DNA of 64,000 nucleotides from Giardia intestinalis (Eukaryota): the NCBI GenBank assembly GCA_000002435.2, contig CM018791.1; one strand, given 5' to 3'. Under the pieces are notes generated by a model that was given only the letters and a program-made list of their open reading frames with translations, was not told the DNA's origin and ran no database searches. Position numbers and translations under genes: made by a program. Below are positions 1 through 8,907 of this stretch, piece after piece; within the stretch, counting starts at the first letter, position 1, and every line of letters begins with the position of its first letter.

Positions 1-111
1 GGCGCTTCAGGTTCTTCGACGGGCTCCGCGGGGTCTGCAAGGCGTGCCTCCTCGGGCTCCTCAACGGGCGCTTCAGGTTCTTCGACGGGCGCCTCTTGCT
101 GCTCGGGCTGT
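1..111. repeat. Tandem repeat with ~66-bp period. The 24-mer ggcgcttcaggttcttcgacgggc is exact at 1-24 and 67-90, and the array probably continues past the left edge. It codes acidic Pro/Glu repeats (..EEPEAPVEEPE..) at the C-terminus of the minus-strand gene.
   Basis: Direct exact 24-mer match at a 66-bp offset. The motif ctcgggct also recurs at 51-58 and 104-111. Confidence 0.7.
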
Positions 112-2603
112 TTCTTTGCAGGAAGAGAAGAGTAACTCTTACTAGCAGTAAGCTGCTGTAAACCAACAGACTCAGGTTCCTTTCTACTTCGAGATTGTAA
201 TAGCGGGGTCCCATCTGGTCGAGTAAAATCTGTTAGAGGAGTACTACATGGTTCGTCCAAGATGTCTTCGCGAATCCTAGATAAAAGGATGATATTATCA
301 CAGACGTGCTCGTCGTCAACTTCATATACTTGAAAGTGTTTGGCTGTACTAGAATCCTCATAGTCTGTAGAGTCTAGACAGGCGTATCGCCCAGTACTAC
401 TACTTCGTACTTGTGAAGTAGTGATCCTATCAAAATGACTAGAAGTGATCACCACACATGGAATGTATTCATCGTTGATATTAACTTGACTCTCAGGATG
501 CTCGTTGTGTAGTAGATCAATTTCCCTTAGCAAGGATCCACCTGTCGAAAGAATATTTCTGGGTGAAGATATAGTTACAATAGTTGCGCTCATTACATCG
601 TCTCGAGAGGCGATTTCCGTGGCAGTTGACGGCGGAAGCAACGTACACTCACTTATTTTGGGAATAAGGGCAGTAGCAGGAGAAATAATATTTAGATCTT
701 TAGCATTGGTCGAGGAGCTTGGGGGCTGCGCAGTAAACTCAGCATATGGGTCCTCTGATGGTATGTCCAAACCTCCACTACTAGCTGCAAATGAAGGACC
801 AACCACTTCTGGTTCAATAATATCTGGATCCTCATGATAACTTTGTTCATCATAGGTGCTTAAATTCTGAGTTGATGATATGGATGAGTGAGCTAGTGCT
901 TGCATCTCTAGCGACTCCTCGTCCTTTGGAGGAGAAAGATTAACTATGGGAGCATCTTCGCGTAGATCATTGCCATCCATCTCAATAGTTGGTAGATCGG
1001 CTATCACTTCAGGTTGCGATGCAATCACAGCGGGAGATATTGACCCCGATGGCTCAAGCTGCACCTCGTGCTCATCAGGTTGTGGAAGTATAATATCCAG
1101 CGACGCCTTTAATGGTGGTAGAATAGTGGGCGCGCCTGATGAACCACTTAACGGTCTACTAGAGACATGAGTTGAAAGATGCTCATTAGATGCAAAATTC
1201 GCCTGTTCAGATTGACAAGCTTCGTTAGATACAGATGCATCTAAAGAAGAACGGTGGTCATCATCGGTAGAGCGTTCAATGTGAGCAATAGCAGAAGACT
1301 GTCTATGAGGAACAACACTTTCATCATCACCATCCGTTAGACGTCGTAGCAAGACTATTTTATTTGACCCTTCATCCTCCTGCGTAAAGATCCTGTCATA
1401 AACATCCAACGTATCCGAAGCTGAGAGCGGAGGAACAGCAACAATCCCACAATCACTTTTGTTTGCCTGCCTCATAAGATCGGTTAATTGGTTAATGGTT
1501 GTTCGCTCGACTGCAAATGCTGTGAACACTTCCTCTGGAGTCAGCTCCAGACAAGGAAGAGGAGCCTTGCCCATAGATGGCCCCCGCACCTGCTCTAAGT
1601 GTTCTACCCATCGCACCCCTAAATCATCTCCCTCAAAAGCAAACGTCATTGGAGGAGCAACCCCCAGTAGAAGAGCCAAGGATGCAAAATCATTGATAGG
1701 CGAGGCTGTGTCTACACCAGGGAGCATAACACATGCAGCTGGGGTATGAATGTTGTCATTTTGGTTTGAAAATTCTTCGTCTTTGACGCTATCCCACATA
1801 CCGTAGAAGGAAGATAACAGGGCTTTATGGTCAGATAAAGCTTGACTCTTGCTATACTTTAAAACAGTAAACATAACTGCAAAATCGACTTGATTGAAAC
1901 CTCTTTTCTTCATCCTCACGATGTAGTTTGGAGACTTCTGGGAAAATCCTGTTCTGAGAGGATTAAATGAAACTGGCTTTTCACAGATTACTCGTGATGC
2001 ATTGACGACAGAAACTATGGAAATTATAGATGACCGAAGAAGGAGGAGATCGTTTGCAAGGGACTTCCTGCTCCCCTTTCCTCCTTTCAAAGCGCTTTCA
2101 ATATTGCCAAAGGCGCTCTCATATTCCTGAATGCTTGTCAGGTATGCTTCTCTGAGATCTAAAAGAGCTTTTAACTTATTTATGTAGGTGGGGATCTCAG
2201 CCCTGTTTGCATCCAGTCGCTCATAAGCAAGATTGCGCTCTTCAATGCATACATCGAGGCTGTCCCACAGTGGTATAATATCTGTAAGAATATTCTTAGC
2301 CGTCTCAGTACGTCGCAACGGTGCTGGATTGTATGTGCGCGCAGTCTTGTAAGAAACGTCTTTTCTCGGCTTGTGCATTTGTTTTCTTGAGAGATCCGCG
2401 CTCATAAGCAAAGGATTTGCTTGCAAGTAGGGACTCTTGTAGGTGAACTTAGTGCCAGTCTGGGCAGACATGGCAGATGTATTAGTGACCAGACGCCCGC
2501 CAGAGGTAGGTCCACTATCACGACGAGACGTTCTCATTGCGTCAGTTTTTGGTGTGGATGATCGTAACACTGCCTGAGGTCTTGATCGGCCTCCAGTCCT
2601 CAT
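1..2603 (-). CDS. Hypothetical protein, 3'-truncated by the window edge. It is a paralog of the plus-strand gene at 2606..4525 and is Ser/Pro/acidic-rich with a C-terminal EEPEAP repeat.
   Basis: ATG is the reverse complement of 2601-2603. An open frame (MRTGGRSRPQAVLRSS...LWDSLDVCIEERNLAYERLDANRAEIPTYINKLKALLDLREAYL...) runs uninterrupted to position 1. It is absent from the ORF track because it has no in-window stop. The central ~200-aa block aligns by eye with ORF 2606..4525. Confidence 0.7.
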   Translation of the reverse strand, partial: MRTGGRSRPQAVLRSSTPKTDAMRTSRRDSGPTSGGRLVTNTSAMSAQTGTKFTYKSPYLQANPLLMSADLSRKQMHKPRKDVSYKTARTYNPAPLRRTETAKNILTDIIPLWDSLDVCIEERNLAYERLDANRAEIPTYINKLKALLDLREAYLTSIQEYESAFGNIESALKGGKGSRKSLANDLLLLRSSIISIVSVVNASRVICEKPVSFNPLRTGFSQKSPNYIVRMKKRGFNQVDFAVMFTVLKYSKSQALSDHKALLSSFYGMWDSVKDEEFSNQNDNIHTPAACVMLPGVDTASPINDFASLALLLGVAPPMTFAFEGDDLGVRWVEHLEQVRGPSMGKAPLPCLELTPEEVFTAFAVERTTINQLTDLMRQANKSDCGIVAVPPLSASDTLDVYDRIFTQEDEGSNKIVLLRRLTDGDDESVVPHRQSSAIAHIERSTDDDHRSSLDASVSNEACQSEQANFASNEHLSTHVSSRPLSGSSGAPTILPPLKASLDIILPQPDEHEVQLEPSGSISPAVIASQPEVIADLPTIEMDGNDLREDAPIVNLSPPKDEESLEMQALAHSSISSTQNLSTYDEQSYHEDPDIIEPEVVGPSFAASSGGLDIPSEDPYAEFTAQPPSSSTNAKDLNIISPATALIPKISECTLLPPSTATEIASRDDVMSATIVTISSPRNILSTGGSLLREIDLLHNEHPESQVNINDEYIPCVVITSSHFDRITTSQVRSSSTGRYACLDSTDYEDSSTAKHFQVYEVDDEHVCDNIILLSRIREDILDEPCSTPLTDFTRPDGTPLLQSRSRKEPESVGLQQLTASKSYSSLPAKKQPEQQEAPVEEPEAPVEEPEEARLADPAEPVEEPEA

Positions 2604-2605
2604 AG

Positions 2606-4525
2606 ATGAATCCGGAAACATTTGGTCCGCGATTTTTAAAATCCGGTTATAAATACGCCGACTGTCTTGGGAGCTTAAAGGAGGTCCAAAGGCTGCGTTC
2701 ACTCACATCCGTCTCTCCTGCTTCAGGCTTGAGTTCACATTCTCTGCGACAAAACATGGCTACTCCTTCTCCTATTCGTAAGCATTCACAAAAGCAGGAA
2801 GAACGCCACGCCTTTTGGCGTTCACTTCTGCTAAAGTGTCCTGTGTTTGTTCCTGTTCAAGGGTCGACACACAAACTGCAAAAGATCACCGCTTACAGTA
2901 TCTCCAAGCATGTGAATCGTACACGAGCAAACAGTCAATTAAACCCAGTTAGAACCCCTCCCCTTTCCAGGTCATTAACCAAAGCTGTCCCTGGATCACT
3001 TCAAAATACCCGAACGCCGCGTGGCTCTGCTGTCAGCTCAACCATCCGGAACACACCTCCCATAAGAAAACCCGGCCTCACCACGTCTGTTCTTTCTAAT
3101 GACTCACTACTCTCACCATCCGGCACTACATCATTTGCAGTCTTCAAGCACCTCCCTAAGGGCTCTATAAATGGAAGTCTCTCTACGAGAAAGTCAACTG
3201 CAGAGCTGACTCTCTCAGAATGGACCCATCTCGAAGAAATGCAGACAGACTTAGGGCTTTGCGAGGCGGAAATTGCGTATTCAAAAGTTACGATCAAAAA
3301 CAACCCGGCATTGGGTAAAGCATACTTCCGTAGAACAAAAAACCTTACTGAGTACAATTCTGCGTATCGAATAGCATATAAGGAGCGTGCAATCGTCTTA
3401 GCTCGTGTCCAGAAAAATATAAAAGAGCTTCGTGGTTCACGCATCGCTCTGCTACGTTCTCTTGAGCGGCTTCGCGCTCTGACTATCTACATGTGCTCAT
3501 TGATTAATGCTGCTCGCTTGATCTGTGGGAAACCAGTAGTTCTGCCAGGGCTCAATTTATACAGTGAGCAAAACTGGCTCTATGACCTACGGCGTGAGCT
3601 CTTTATGAGCAGGAAAACCACCGCGATACTGCTTACGGTGTTCAAGCTCTTTGGTAGAAAAACATATGAGGATGTGCGCTCTGTTGTTGATGCGTATTTT
3701 ACATCGTGTATTACCGATTTTCCCCCTACTCTGTCACTGTCCGAGCAAGAGCTAAGCCGAACGCTTGGCATGCCACCTAATGAAGATGCTTCACTTAAGA
3801 GCACTATGTCAGCTTCTAGCGCCCCTGCGATCAACGGTAAGACAGCTAGTGATGATGGATCGTCGCAACCTACTCTTGAGGCAGCGTACATTCCCGACGA
3901 TAGCATGAATAACATGGGCTATTTCTCCAGAATGGACGGGCTATCTATGACCGATACCATCTATGATGAAGATGCAGATCTTGACAGAGTTACTGCGGGA
4001 GACGTGGCTCTCTACCTTTTGTTGGGTGTTAGCGCAGAAGAAATCTTCGACGGAGATGATTTGGCAGTGGCATGGAATACTCATATAGATAAAATCATAA
4101 ATACATATCAACGCCTATCAAATGTGGAATTAGAGGAGGTCCCGTCATTACAGGACCTGCCAATTGTAGACATTCCCTTGTTGACAGGGCTCCAAATTGT
4201 GGAGATGGCTCGAACAGAAACTTTTATTGTGTCTGATTACATAAACCTCCTCAAGGACTTCGATAACGTTGGCTTGGACGTTGTCAGAATACCAGTTGAT
4301 CCATCCGACCCCTTTGAGACGTATAGAGTTAACTTTGATCTATCTCTACTACGCGACAGTGCAGATCTAGCAGCATTTGAGTTAGATGGAAAATGTATTG
4401 GGTGCTCTTCTCTGTCCTCGAAAACTGCTCCTAGTTGCCCCGATGAAACAGCACATAGACCCAATAATTCTTCTCGCTCATCTGTATTTTCATTAACCAA
4501 GAGCATCTCAGTGGAGGAGAATTGA
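2606..4525 (+). CDS. Hypothetical protein, paralog of the divergent minus-strand gene upstream. A shorter alternative start is at 2756 (MATPSP, with caaaacATGg context).
   Basis: 639-aa ORF. The conserved block (EEMQTDLGLCEAEIAYSKV...IALLRSLERLRALTIYMCSLINAARLICGKPVVLPGL...TAILLTVFKLFGRKTYEDVRSVVDAYF) matches the minus-strand protein (LWDSLDVCIEERNLAYERL...LANDLLLLRSSIISIVSVVNASRVICEKPVSFNPL...FAVMFTVLKYSKSQALSDHKALLSSFY). Confidence 0.65.
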   Translation: MNPETFGPRFLKSGYKYADCLGSLKEVQRLRSLTSVSPASGLSSHSLRQNMATPSPIRKHSQKQEERHAFWRSLLLKCPVFVPVQGSTHKLQKITAYSISKHVNRTRANSQLNPVRTPPLSRSLTKAVPGSLQNTRTPRGSAVSSTIRNTPPIRKPGLTTSVLSNDSLLSPSGTTSFAVFKHLPKGSINGSLSTRKSTAELTLSEWTHLEEMQTDLGLCEAEIAYSKVTIKNNPALGKAYFRRTKNLTEYNSAYRIAYKERAIVLARVQKNIKELRGSRIALLRSLERLRALTIYMCSLINAARLICGKPVVLPGLNLYSEQNWLYDLRRELFMSRKTTAILLTVFKLFGRKTYEDVRSVVDAYFTSCITDFPPTLSLSEQELSRTLGMPPNEDASLKSTMSASSAPAINGKTASDDGSSQPTLEAAYIPDDSMNNMGYFSRMDGLSMTDTIYDEDADLDRVTAGDVALYLLLGVSAEEIFDGDDLAVAWNTHIDKIINTYQRLSNVELEEVPSLQDLPIVDIPLLTGLQIVEMARTETFIVSDYINLLKDFDNVGLDVVRIPVDPSDPFETYRVNFDLSLLRDSADLAAFELDGKCIGCSSLSSKTAPSCPDETAHRPNNSSRSSVFSLTKSISVEEN

Positions 4526-4582
4526 CCCCTCTTTTCTGAGAGCCGCGGAAATTTAAAAAGCTTCGTCCTTTGCTTTTACCCC

Positions 4583-5104
4583 ATGTCGCTTTCGCCCATC
4601 AGCATGAAGACAAGCCATTGGCAATATAGGAGGCCCACAAAGCAGCACATGAGCTGGGACTACTTTGAGTTGCTGAATCTTTACCGCGCAATAACTTTCG
4701 CAGGACTGAGTTACCTCAGCGGTGACGGTTTGCCAGAGGATGACTTGGTGATTGAGCAGTTTTATACTCTGAAAAAGGACTATATAAAGAAGTTTGAGCC
4801 TCTGGCCGTTTATCAAATGTATAGGGCACAAGTTCAGCGTACTCTGTTGCTAGGGGTAAATCATGATTGGATGACCTCCTTGCTGAGCATAGTTTTCCGG
4901 CTGTTGCGCGCAGAGGCGTGTATTCCTCATGAGAAGATAATGGCAGTCATAAATAACTTAACAAACCACGTCCACGAATACATCAAGGAAAATGCAGAAC
5001 ACAGGATATCTGGCTTTCTTGAGCGGTGGTCCCTTTCTAATAATGTTTTGCCTTCTCGCTGTCCGTCGGCCCACTTCAAACGCACCACAAGGGAACGAAT
5101 TTAA
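4583..5104 (+). CDS. Hypothetical protein, 173 aa.
   Basis: ATG-initiated ORF with codon and composition like its neighbours. No family recognised. Confidence 0.45.
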   Translation: MSLSPISMKTSHWQYRRPTKQHMSWDYFELLNLYRAITFAGLSYLSGDGLPEDDLVIEQFYTLKKDYIKKFEPLAVYQMYRAQVQRTLLLGVNHDWMTSLLSIVFRLLRAEACIPHEKIMAVINNLTNHVHEYIKENAEHRISGFLERWSLSNNVLPSRCPSAHFKRTTRERI

Positions 5105-5109
5105 TAAAT

Positions 5110-6312
5110 ATGCCTTCTATTATTGACGCGAAGTCTTTTATAGAGGCACCCTCAAGGCATGGCCGTGCCTCTCCGCTCGATGCTGATCCTTGGGAAGATC
5201 TACCGACTATGAAGGTGGCCGTCGGAGCTGCACAACTGGTGTTACAAAAGTGCGGGGAGAGCAGTATGTTCTTGAACATGCACTACTCAACGAGCGTTAC
5301 TTCCCGCAAGATTGCAATCAGGACATCTCCCTTTTTAAACGAAAAGCGTGTCAGCCGAGGGGCTTTAGCTGGAGACCAAGGAATCCCTAGTCATGTCAAG
5401 CCCGCTGTTTCTGTTATATTACTTGTCTCTTCCGCGTGCGCTAAAGCAGCCTCAGAGATTAGGAAGCAGATTTATGAGAGGTTCTATTGTAAGGAGGCCC
5501 AGCATCCAATCACTGATCCCGGAGATGACTTCAATGTCGTCCTCATAATCACAAGAAAACATCTAGAAGCCATGTTTAACAAGCACACAGGCTCGTTTGT
5601 GCGCACGTACTATTACGATAAACTTACAGAACTGCGCCGTGGTACGCGGCTCATGTGCTTAATGGACATTAGATTGCAGAAAGACCCTGTTGAGGGTAAA
5701 GTAATGACAACGCTGATGCAAGCTTTCACTGCTCCGCCATATGTTTTGGACATTAACTGCAAGGATTTTACTTTTAAGGTCATCGCGGGCTGCTTGGGCC
5801 ATGATCTATGGCTCTACCCGTGGAGAGAGGCCTCTCTCAATTCTACCGAAATTTCCTTGATGAACTCCCATGCACGAACAGAGTACTTGCACATCCGTGA
5901 CTTCATCACAACCTATGACGCCCGAAAGGCACGGACAGCAGCTGTGGACTCAGATGGTAACTGCTATCTCTTAGAAAGTAGGAAAGTCCTTCCATCTGAG
6001 TTTTCCATAACCATGCTGCATTTGAGTGGCGGGAAAGTGGAGAATTGTTTCGTTGGATCCACAAAAGAGCCACCCGATATGATAGCAAAGCGCATTTTCC
6101 TAGTTGGGAAAGTCCTTAGACTGGCATGTCCTGATCTTACGGTCTCTGCTTTTACTGTAGGGGGGATTTCTGCTCCACAAGTGCCTCTCTCGCAAGAGGG
6201 GCTGGGGTCATTGAGAACCTCCACTTTAGAGCTACCTAAATTGGATGGGCGGACGCACCCTATGAGTTCTAGAGATACCAAGCACAACAAAAGAAGTAAA
6301 GTGAAACTTTGA
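5110..6312 (+). CDS. Hypothetical protein, 400 aa.
   Basis: ATG at 5110 preceded by AT-rich aatttaataaat, only 5 nt after the upstream stop. No family recognised. Confidence 0.5.
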   Translation: MPSIIDAKSFIEAPSRHGRASPLDADPWEDLPTMKVAVGAAQLVLQKCGESSMFLNMHYSTSVTSRKIAIRTSPFLNEKRVSRGALAGDQGIPSHVKPAVSVILLVSSACAKAASEIRKQIYERFYCKEAQHPITDPGDDFNVVLIITRKHLEAMFNKHTGSFVRTYYYDKLTELRRGTRLMCLMDIRLQKDPVEGKVMTTLMQAFTAPPYVLDINCKDFTFKVIAGCLGHDLWLYPWREASLNSTEISLMNSHARTEYLHIRDFITTYDARKARTAAVDSDGNCYLLESRKVLPSEFSITMLHLSGGKVENCFVGSTKEPPDMIAKRIFLVGKVLRLACPDLTVSAFTVGGISAPQVPLSQEGLGSLRTSTLELPKLDGRTHPMSSRDTKHNKRSKVKL

Positions 6313-6477
6313 ATGTGTTTGTGCATTTTATGCGTAACGACTCGACCTGGTACTGAGGTGGAATACAGAGTCGAATTCTCGGATACACAACTTTGTTCTA
6401 GTTATGTTCTGGTTGCCTTGGTATCTCTACAGCTGGTAAGACACATACAGATTGATTTTAAAAAGTCCAAAATTCCG

Positions 6478-8907
6478 ATGGATCTTTCTGTTAAGCAACG
6501 CCTGAAGCTCTGCAAGGCAGAATTCGATGCTTGCTTTAGGCAGCTGCAATATGATAAGGCGTTACGCGCCATATGTCATGCAATAGAGATTACTCCAGAT
6601 GATGTAAGCTTATATCTTAATAGAGCACAGTGTTACACCCAAATGGGCTTAACCCAAAAGGCCACCGAAGATGCACTCTATGTAATTGCAGCAGAACCAA
6701 ACGATCACAGAGGATACCGCAGTAGAGCAGACGCACTCCTTTATCAGGGTGAATTTGAATTTTCACTCATTGACTATTATCATTGTATTGAAATGCGGCC
6801 TGATCTGGTAGACCACGAGACGGGCGTCAAGCGTTGCGAAGATGCAGTGAAAAAGGCAATTTTATATGATGACAAAGATATAGAACTCATTCTAGAACTG
6901 TTGGAGCTTGGGGTAATTGTTGAGGGCACCGTCTCTCATTCTTCGACTAAGGGGTTTTCCTTATGGACCCCGCCAGAACTTCCTGAAGAAGAGGATGTCG
7001 AGGGTTCACAATCTCTTGGCAATTTTCTGGCTCCATTAACCGACGAGAACCTTTCGAAAGATCTGCGGATACAGCAAAAACGCAAACCCGTAGACAACAT
7101 TATAGTGCAAAGGCCTAAAACAACTCGACCGAAGAGCAGCCGTCTGCCCTTCTTTGATTTAGGAGCAGATAAGGACTTTCTTCGCGAATTACAATCGTTT
7201 CCGTTAGTCAAGGATCTTGCCGCGATGGGTACTGAATACATTGACCAACGAGAGCAATACTGGGGTCAATTGGCCAAGAAGGGGTATAGCTCCGATCACA
7301 ACTCGCGCCGGCCTAACTCTGTCAAAGCACGGCCAAAGAAGGAATCAATTCCAACCTCATCTGAGCGCTCTCACTCAGCAAAAGTGCCTGATACACTTTC
7401 ATACAATCGGCGAAGACTCTTGGAAGCGACAAAGTCCGGATCTAACATCAAGAAATTAGTCCCCTACACCTCTAAAGCGGTCGAAATGGCGCATGGTTCC
7501 CCTGCTGCTTCTCCAAAGCGATCACGTAGTCCAGTGGCGAGTCAGGCACCTGAGTCATCATCAGGGGCGTCAGGATTACATTCACAGATTGCTGCAGCTG
7601 TTGCCATGAGTGCACGACTCCAAATGCTCCAGAATGCTCAGGGCCTTTCATTGGAAGAAGCGCCTCCCACAGATACCCGTGTCTCAGACTCTATTTCAAA
7701 CACAGATACCGATCAGTGTTTGTTTGACGAGCATATCGTACGAGCAGGAGCACACATTAAGCAGCGGAGTTCGTCTGAATCTACAAGGTCGACTTTAGAC
7801 ACAAAACCCCCCATCGATCCATATCTTCAGGTGACAAAGAAGGTTAACAAAAACACTCACCTCATGCATAATACGCCCAACCACAGACCTTCTACCTCTA
7901 AGGCCGCATCTGTAACGAAAAAGCCTTCGTCTGCATCGCGTCCACCCAAAACACGGAATAGAACAATAGAGCTGTCTGTTACCGACAAGCGTGATTACAT
8001 TGGAGGAGTCGCTGGATTGGCTGCAGAAACACGGTCTAGCAGCATCCGGTCCCAGGCCTTTTCAAGGTACATCCTCAACACCGTGACTGCCGAGGCCCTT
8101 GCCAGCAAGCGCTCAAAGGTCAACCCGGTGACCTTGGCCCAGGAGGCCCGTACCTTAGAGACTTGGATAGACGGAAAGCAGAGAGATGTCCTTGATGCGG
8201 TTCAAAACGGGCTTCTCTGCGACTCTATCAAGCTCTGTAAAGAGGTTTTGGAGCGTATATGCAAGGGAGACCGGGTGTCGAAGGCTCTTCAAGATCTTCC
8301 ACGTCGAAAAGCACAGTTTTACCTTTATATCGGGTGTACCTATTTTCTCTTAGACCAACGTCAGACTGACCACTCGCGGTCATGCCTTGCGAGTTTAAAG
8401 AACGCAGTCGACTATGCCAATCTGACGAAGGATTCGGTTCTGATACTGCAGTCTGTTCGTGAGCTTTCCAAGGCCATGCTTAATATGGGACAGGCCTTCA
8501 AGGCGATCGTGCCTCTTAAGAGCATTCTGCGACATTTTGAAGACATTCCACTGCTGGAGGCAGATACACTACTGTGCATTGGGAGGGCATACCATGACGG
8601 GGGTGACTATCTGAATGGGCTCACATACACCCACGAAGCTCTCGCTATCTATCAACGCCTCTACGTTAATGAAGACGAGCTCCCGATAGATTTTCCTGGC
8701 AAGCGGTGCAAGTATACTGTCTTCACAGAGCTGTCTCCGCGTCACAACTACTGCTTCTGCCTCTGTCTCATCGGCCGGTGCCACTTAGCCCAAAATGACA
8801 AAGCCCTAGCAAAGCAGTATCTTGAGCATTGCAAGAGCCTCGGAAAATTATGGAAAGACAGCACGGCATGGCACACGGCCACGGAGCTGCTCAGATTCAT
8901 TTATTAG
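6478..8907 (+). CDS. TPR-repeat protein with N-terminal TPRs, a Ser/Pro-rich disordered middle and a C-terminal TPR-like region. The ORF is open from 6313, but the likely start is ATG 6478 (MDLSVK).
   Basis: TPR signature KAEFDACFRQLQYDKALRAICHAIEITPDDVSLYLNRAQCYTQMGLTQKATEDALYVIAAEPNDHRGYRSRADALLYQGEF. AT-rich initiator attgattttaaaaagtccaaaattccgATG lies just upstream of 6478. Confidence 0.65.
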   Translation: MDLSVKQRLKLCKAEFDACFRQLQYDKALRAICHAIEITPDDVSLYLNRAQCYTQMGLTQKATEDALYVIAAEPNDHRGYRSRADALLYQGEFEFSLIDYYHCIEMRPDLVDHETGVKRCEDAVKKAILYDDKDIELILELLELGVIVEGTVSHSSTKGFSLWTPPELPEEEDVEGSQSLGNFLAPLTDENLSKDLRIQQKRKPVDNIIVQRPKTTRPKSSRLPFFDLGADKDFLRELQSFPLVKDLAAMGTEYIDQREQYWGQLAKKGYSSDHNSRRPNSVKARPKKESIPTSSERSHSAKVPDTLSYNRRRLLEATKSGSNIKKLVPYTSKAVEMAHGSPAASPKRSRSPVASQAPESSSGASGLHSQIAAAVAMSARLQMLQNAQGLSLEEAPPTDTRVSDSISNTDTDQCLFDEHIVRAGAHIKQRSSSESTRSTLDTKPPIDPYLQVTKKVNKNTHLMHNTPNHRPSTSKAASVTKKPSSASRPPKTRNRTIELSVTDKRDYIGGVAGLAAETRSSSIRSQAFSRYILNTVTAEALASKRSKVNPVTLAQEARTLETWIDGKQRDVLDAVQNGLLCDSIKLCKEVLERICKGDRVSKALQDLPRRKAQFYLYIGCTYFLLDQRQTDHSRSCLASLKNAVDYANLTKDSVLILQSVRELSKAMLNMGQAFKAIVPLKSILRHFEDIPLLEADTLLCIGRAYHDGGDYLNGLTYTHEALAIYQRLYVNEDELPIDFPGKRCKYTVFTELSPRHNYCFCLCLIGRCHLAQNDKALAKQYLEHCKSLGKLWKDSTAWHTATELLRFIY

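Follow-up and report, generated by a model that had tools for sequence, protein, structure and literature searches.

Where do two divergently oriented genes begin when their start codons seem almost to touch, and did such a pair arise by inverted duplication? The question is raised by the left end of a 64,000-nucleotide stretch of Giardia intestinalis DNA (contig CM018791.1 of assembly GCA_000002435.2, hereafter the window), where a large minus-strand gene and a plus-strand gene, GL50803_16289, lie head to head. From a comparison of orthologous loci and of the encoded proteins, we consider it likely that the two are ancient paralogues belonging to a diplomonad-restricted family, with start codons at 2621 (minus strand) and 2756 (plus strand), separated by a 134-bp spacer from which they would be transcribed divergently; what the proteins do is within this explanation a low-confidence guess.

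Start codons and intergenic spacer

The window corresponds to assemblage A of G. intestinalis, the plus-strand product read from ATG 2756 matching the WB protein GL50803_0016289 (KAE8302724.1 / XP_037901789.1) with 0 mismatches over 589 aa. GC content ranges from 43 to 53% across the window, and its open reading frames (ORFs) are intron-less and tightly packed. A homology search with the plus-strand ORF at 2606-4525 retrieved Giardia proteins only. Orthologous loci were compared from P15 (assemblage E, L001), from three further assemblage-level genomes (L003-L005) and from Giardia muris (L002); the window, P15 and L003-L005 together make up the five assemblages referred to below. Minus-gene orthologues were taken from the flanks of the plus-gene loci. 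A word-indexed homology search returned nothing for the full minus protein and a single fragment for its first 460 aa, low-complexity words having probably swamped the candidates. The plus-strand paralogue (2756..4525, +) consists of 589 aa plus a stop, and three ORFs antisense to it (3001-3444, 3580-3915 and 4237-4506) are regarded as chance ORFs. Its large neighbour is represented by its 5' part (1..2621, -; 873 codons). An earlier note on this DNA, made from the sequence alone, had the minus-strand gene ending in an acidic repeat; instead, its ORF is open from 2621 to the left window edge and continues past it, and the full-length counterparts comprise 2207 aa in P15 and, as an ORF, 1877 aa in G. 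muris.

The same note had placed the two start codons 2 nt apart. The ATGs concerned, at 2601-2603 on the minus strand and 2606-2608 on the plus strand, do exist and are separated by just 'ag', and in this strain each of them begins an open frame. Upstream of the ATG at 2601-2603, however, the minus strand carries a further in-frame ATG at 2619-2621, which is the sole ATG there conserved in all five assemblage loci and which independent gene calls in P15, L003, L004 and L005 use as the start. Counted from this position, codons 1-28 of the minus gene (2538..2621, -) place the ATG at 2601-2603 at codon 7. Codon-by-codon comparison across loci revealed mostly third-position synonymous changes within this segment, with retention of the peptide MFPDSS.RTGGRSRPQAVLRSSTPKTDA, and proportions of nonsynonymous and synonymous differences (pN/pS) of 0.07/0.48 between the window and L003 and of 0.05/0.57 between the window and L005. 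Codon 7 itself reads Met, Met, Ser, Ser and Leu over the five loci, and the G. muris minus protein also possesses a leader alignable with the segment. Because the upstream ATG is invariant, codons 1-28 change mostly synonymously, and codon 7 is not kept as methionine, the ATG at 2619-2621 is taken as the real minus start. Synonymous divergence between assemblages A and E amounted to only 0.045 in codons 1-28 (a small sample of 28 codons), whereas the remainder of the gene shows 0.23-0.44; constraints on a promoter or on the 5' end that extend into the first codons may account for the low value.

On the plus strand, the protein annotated in the WB reference and that annotated in P15 both begin at the ATG equivalent to 2756. 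In L003-L005 the start lies 9-10 codons upstream, opposite a TTG in the window (2729-2731), and ATT or GTT stands in the place of ATG 2756. The longer upstream extension of the plus ORF (2606..2755, +), which overlaps minus codons 1-6, is open in this strain but non-coding: in P15, L003 and L004 in-frame stops or frameshifts interrupt its equivalent, and the peptide is not conserved. On this comparative evidence the real plus start is placed at ATG 2756. Read as maximal ORFs, the minus frame from 2621 and the plus frame from 2606 overlap by 16 nt, and the apparent 2-nt geometry is an artefact of ORF reading, in which one of several in-frame minus ATGs was combined with the first ATG of an over-long plus ORF.

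Starts at 2603 (-) and 2606 (+) would leave virtually no intergenic DNA and would place the promoter or initiator of each gene inside the coding sequence of the other. Apart from the open frames in this strain, such an arrangement finds a parallel in the DHA2 assembly, where a 639-aa plus protein is annotated from the ATG equivalent to 2606. Given that the minus codon in question is Ser or Leu in three of the five assemblages, that the coding sequence remains conserved beyond it as far as ATG 2621, and that the plus extension is disrupted in three genomes and bypassed in two annotations, we regard it as hardly credible. Since the starts do not abut, a promoter need not be sought within coding sequence, as the earlier note had proposed; the conserved starts lie 134 bp apart. 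The plus start of DHA2_152514 (639 aa), like that in several automated gene calls, is over-extended and overlaps the neighbouring gene; comparative evidence of this kind fixes the start codons of both genes.

As a fallback, the earlier note had offered starts at 2756 (+) and 2537 (-), with a bidirectional spacer of ~220 bp. Both ATGs exist, and the plus half of this proposal agrees with the WB and P15 annotations. For the minus half, the methionine encoded at 2537 (Met29) is itself conserved in all five assemblages, an A-rich CCAAAAAC lies 8 nt upstream of it, and one Logan contig (L007, described below) carries a frameshift between 2621 and 2537 with the ORF from Met29 left intact. Conversely, codons 1-28 evolve as coding sequence, with synonymous changes at no fewer than 14 codons, a conserved peptide and a pN/pS ratio of ~0.1; the invariance of ATG 2621 and the G. 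muris leader, which aligns with the segment upstream of Met29, likewise speak against a start at 2537. Met29 as the principal start thus appears distinctly improbable, and the spacer bounded by conserved starts measures 134 rather than ~220 bp.

This spacer (2622..2755) constitutes a putative shared bidirectional promoter region. Equivalent spacers measure 135 bp in P15, 108 in L003, 99 in L004, and 95 in both L005 and G. muris. Adjoining the minus ATG is a conserved AT-rich block of 22 nt, TTGGTCCGCGATTTTTAAAATC (2622..2643), a candidate initiator or TATA-like element in which 68% of columns are invariant across the five assemblages; this proportion equals that of flanking coding DNA, compared with 11% in the remaining spacer (2657-2728), where indels also occur. 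The AT-rich run TTTTTAAAAT of the block begins 12 nt upstream of the minus ATG, and a conserved GATTTTTAAAAT...TTATAAATA is located 12-35 nt upstream of it, whereas the plus ATG has only a weak A-rich ACAAAAC element. Within the spacer, no plus-strand ATG precedes the plus start in any of the five G. intestinalis loci, so that 2756, or its equivalent, would serve as the start codon of a transcript beginning at the AT-rich block. We infer that the spacer drives transcription of the two genes in opposite directions, that a shared promoter and the transcription starts would lie within it, and that TTGGTCCGCGATTTTTAAAATC is the likeliest core promoter element. In a separate observation, Logan contig L006 (SRR10368393) shows the Illumina adapter GTGTGCTCTTCCGATCT (L006:1-17) fused at window position 2652, just past TTATAAAT in the spacer; should the run be RNA-seq, this junction could mark the 5' end of a plus-gene transcript with an untranslated region (UTR) of ~104 nt.

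Several points weigh against this reading of starts and spacer. Met29 might serve as an extra or alternative minus start. Logan contig L007 (SRR26410991; L007:400-420) has A4 in place of A5 at 2543-2547, a 1-nt deletion between ATG 2621 and Met29 that frameshifts minus codons 1-28, and the gene caller there began at Met29; the shortened run may be either a sequencing error or a natural variant. With respect to the promoter, the AT-rich block lies ~100 nt from the plus ATG, beyond the typical length of a Giardia 5' UTR, and the plus gene may therefore use its own weaker element, ACAAAAC. Furthermore, the G. muris spacer is not alignable with the others and contains no comparable AT-rich block.

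A diplomonad-restricted protein family

Pairwise alignment of the two translations, in which both peptides quoted by the earlier note are present, recovered significant similarity: BLASTP of the minus against the plus protein aligned 154 aa at 25% identity (E=1e-12), with a collinear second segment at E=1e-4. When a hidden Markov model (HMM) built from six plus-gene orthologues alone was applied to minus proteins from six genomes, these scored 53-78 bits, whereas none of 1000 shuffles exceeded 7.6. In a multiple alignment, collinear similarity extended over ~320 residues on the minus side and ~380 on the plus side, a larger module than the core of ~200 aa originally described. As BLASTP, the multiple alignment and the plus-only HMM agree, the paralogy is taken as real.

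The conserved region of the minus protein is a helical domain spanning codons 96-418 (1368..2336, -), defined by its family HMM match and showing a ratio of nonsynonymous to synonymous substitution rates (dN/dS) of 0.07-0.10. Its counterpart in the plus protein, also matched by the family HMM, spans codons 151-532 (3206..4351, +) and is split by a variable insert of 85 aa (codons 311-395), for which dN/dS is 0.16-0.28 compared with 0.02-0.10 in the core. Five motifs are shared within the family, namely LW..L.IP..ER, G[KR]GSR, NAAR..C.KPV.LP, LLLG...F.GDDL..W and V.VP...ETY; the minus protein has all five, the plus protein the last four together with a degenerate form of the first (MQTDLGLCEAEIAY). 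An AlphaFold2 model of the minus domain, based on a 20-sequence family alignment, reached a mean predicted local distance difference test score (pLDDT) of 81.9 and a predicted template modelling score (pTM) of 0.81, and comprises about ten helices followed by a short C-terminal beta-hairpin. For the plus protein, modelling from a 7-sequence alignment gave a pLDDT of 39 and was unusable.

Each protein follows the same architecture, in which a basic leader rich in Ser, Thr and Pro precedes a helical globular domain of ~320-380 aa and a fast-evolving, disordered acidic tail that is sometimes repetitive. The flanking regions contain 29-35% Ser, Thr and Pro, compared with ~20% in the cores, in agreement with the Ser/Pro-rich flanks noted earlier. 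Within the window, the disordered tail of the minus protein (3..1367, -) consists of 29% Ser, Thr and Pro and 18% Asp and Glu, with a dN/dS of ~0.11; past approximately residue 560 it can no longer be aligned between Giardia species (G. muris). The acidic repeat of 66-bp period reported for this tail is in part borne out: positions 1-44 and 67-110, a 66-nt offset, match at 32 of 44 sites. The repeat (1..110, -), of an APVEEPE-type Pro/Glu pattern and cut by the window edge, is weak, however, and Tandem Repeats Finder (TRF) assigns it a period of 33, 2.9 copies and 63% matches. No PVEEP motif occurs in the P15 orthologue of the minus gene.

When 1.84 billion representative proteins were searched with a profile, 18 hits were obtained, all diplomonad or unnamed, which added 16 further members and answered the earlier suggestion that more paralogues be sought. 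Besides the pair, G. intestinalis members comprise GL50803_16230, GL50803_61043 and GL50803_16504, and G. muris members comprise GMRT_11566, 12751, 13072, 10388, 12827 and 10298. Outside Giardia the family includes SS50377_22390 and SS50377_22391 of Spironucleus salmonicida and Hexamita inflata proteins such as CAL6108439. At least 6-8 members are found in Giardia; the remaining 59 kb of the window contain no further ones. With the family HMM (A5), the plus ORF obtains E=1.7e-106 and its minus-strand neighbour E=1.5e-90, values that are not independent, both sequences being within the seed. As far as the profile search can see, the family appears diplomonad-specific, as the earlier note had surmised. 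Relative to other members, the pair shares the conserved N-terminal domain with its motifs, the variable disordered tails of acidic or repetitive composition, and the tendency of paralogues to neighbour one another. The plus gene differs from them in its degenerate first motif and 85-aa domain insert, and the minus gene in having by far the longest tail (~1,800 aa in P15).

Searches for the identity of the family were negative, consistent with the initial impression that no known family is recognisable. Pfam gave nothing meaningful for the two proteins, their full-length orthologues in P15 and G. muris, or 20 family members. The sole hit was to Cornifin/SPRR (E=2.4e-12) at residues 880-963 in the tail of the large G. 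muris protein (L002:4275-9905, -), a Pro/Gln-rich repeat for which the match is almost certainly compositional rather than homologous. The family profile, searched against all PDB sequences, yielded only a marginal match to the KIF20A coiled coil (E=0.02), and the AlphaFold domain model found no specific PDB fold match. Every family member is annotated as a hypothetical protein only; literature searches on GL50803_16289, 16230, 61043 and 16504 found no paper discussing any of them, and none of the four is in the 608-protein localisation atlas or the ventral-disc proteome supplements. Paralogue GL50803_16504 has been detected by mass spectrometry (two lists). Approximately 40% of the Giardia proteome is uncharacterised (PMC13322205), and families such as this one are candidates for lineage-specific cell biology; with the family defined, 6-8 Giardia genes can be approached jointly by tagging or knock-down.

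Origin of the pair and possible function

Across three assemblage comparisons, the conserved domains had a dN/dS of 0.02-0.10 and the leaders one of 0.03-0.16, while tails and insert showed 0.10-0.35, the highest value (0.35) falling in the set formed by the variable plus insert and short C-terminal tail, with 0.02-0.16 elsewhere. Because both genes are under purifying selection, both are judged to be functional.

Both genes have 1:1 orthologues in G. muris in the same head-to-head arrangement. In a neighbour-joining tree, a method that is weak at such divergence, the two are not sisters and fall into separate clades, and most Giardia groups join one G. intestinalis with one G. muris member. 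The orthologues and this pairing in the tree together place the duplications before the divergence of the two Giardia species. The plus gene is moreover closer to other paralogues (33% identity to P0017/GMRT_12751 and 29-31% to others) than to its neighbour (at most 25%). A direct inverted duplication, proposed in the earlier note as the source of the pair, is thus not supported by these sequence comparisons. That the neighbours arose by local inverted duplication and are each other's closest relatives would fit their adjacency and inversion, as well as the clustering of the family elsewhere, and a tree of very divergent sequences leaves room for an ancient local duplication followed by unequal divergence; with separate orthologues in G. 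muris and nearer relatives among other paralogues, however, we consider this origin unlikely, and we retain the reading of two ancient paralogues that were already distinct before the Giardia species separated.

Clustering of paralogues is recurrent within the family. In P15 three members stand in a row, the GL50803_61043 orthologue, the large gene and the 16289 orthologue. The first of these (L001:1575-3152, -) is directly downstream of the large gene, and the region equivalent to it falls just outside the left window edge. The G. muris equivalent, GMRT_10388, is parted from the large gene by one unrelated gene of 894 aa. Also identified was a tandem pair in S. salmonicida, SS50377_22390/22391, arranged head to tail 45 nt apart beside a divergent SF-assemblin gene (L008:8001-12800).

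With regard to function, these proteins may belong to a lineage-specific structural scaffold, possibly of the cytoskeleton, in which the conserved domain would serve for assembly or anchoring and the tail as a variable spacer or interaction arm. The scaffold role is a low-confidence guess, and it is weakened by the fact that no Pfam, PDB sequence or specific fold match backs it. In a bolder form, the shared domain of ~320 aa would represent an undescribed diplomonad-restricted family and fold with ~8 Giardia members, acting as microtubule-associated scaffolds that distantly echo the rod repeats of PRC1/MAP65 and carry hypervariable acidic tails as spacer arms; taken as a whole, this proposal is speculative and rather unlikely to hold.

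The PRC1 comparison arises from the family motif LW..L.IP..ER.YAY, which fits a motif of the PRC1 rod (ELWDRLQIPEEEREAV) over 22 columns at 41% identity in hhalign, and from the basic, Ser/Thr/Pro-rich leaders, which resemble many microtubule-binding regions. If taken literally, it would make the domain a very divergent microtubule-bundling module of the PRC1/Ase1/MAP65 type. Alignment of the family HMM with residues 236-461 of human PRC1 reached a probability of 22.8% in hhalign and was limited to the 22-column motif; no PF03999 (MAP65_ASE1) match at E<=1 was obtained for either protein, the full-length orthologues or 20 family members; and PRC1 was not retrieved by the family profile search of PDB sequences. 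On the hhalign test, membership was rejected, and homology of this kind is in our view improbable. Compared with PRC1/Ase1/MAP65 proteins (PF03999; PDB 3NRX, 4L3I), the family shares a helix-initiating [LI]W..L.[IV]P..ER motif, helical content and basic or disordered flanks. It differs in having no HMM match, no profile match past 22 residues and no specific structural match, and no counterpart was found for its motifs GKGSR, NAAR..C.KPV.LP, LLLG..F.GDDL..W and V.VP..ETY.

Neighbouring loci and known divergent gene pairs

Further along the window, the ATG of a TPR-like ORF of 864 aa (6313-8907) abuts the stop of the preceding ORF (5110-6312) with a 0-nt gap. The P15 and L003 orthologues of the TPR-like ORF comprise 809 aa, with spacers of ~145-165 nt, and the gap at 6313 is probably the same artefact of ORF over-extension as that described above for the pair. 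In G. muris, the orthologue of the large minus gene (L002:4272-9905, -; 1877-aa ORF) is missing from the called genes at its locus, where it overlaps long ORFs on the opposite strand (3385-7362 and 3395-7294, both +), and the G. muris assembly may lack an annotation for it. Between 20000 and 42000 in the window, several 2-kb bins show a GC fraction of 0.50-0.53, compared with 0.43-0.47 at the window ends.

Giardia promoters are ~60 nt long, contain AT-rich TATA- or initiator (Inr)-like elements and are inherently bidirectional (PMC1885649), and the head-to-head ran and phd genes of Giardia share a common spacer of 153 bp (Teodorovic et al. 2007, PMC1885649). The present pair resembles pairs of the ran/phd type in its divergent orientation, in a spacer of ~100-150 bp, in the AT-rich element or elements near a start codon, and in the conservation of the arrangement across Giardia species; it is head to head with a spacer of no more than 250 bp and has an AT-rich, initiator- or TATA-like element near a start. 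The arrangement is an ordinary Giardia divergent gene pair and tells nothing new about Giardia bidirectional promoters. It differs from ran/phd-type pairs in that ORFs happen to run across the spacer on both strands, so that the genes appear to abut or overlap, and in that both neighbours are paralogues.

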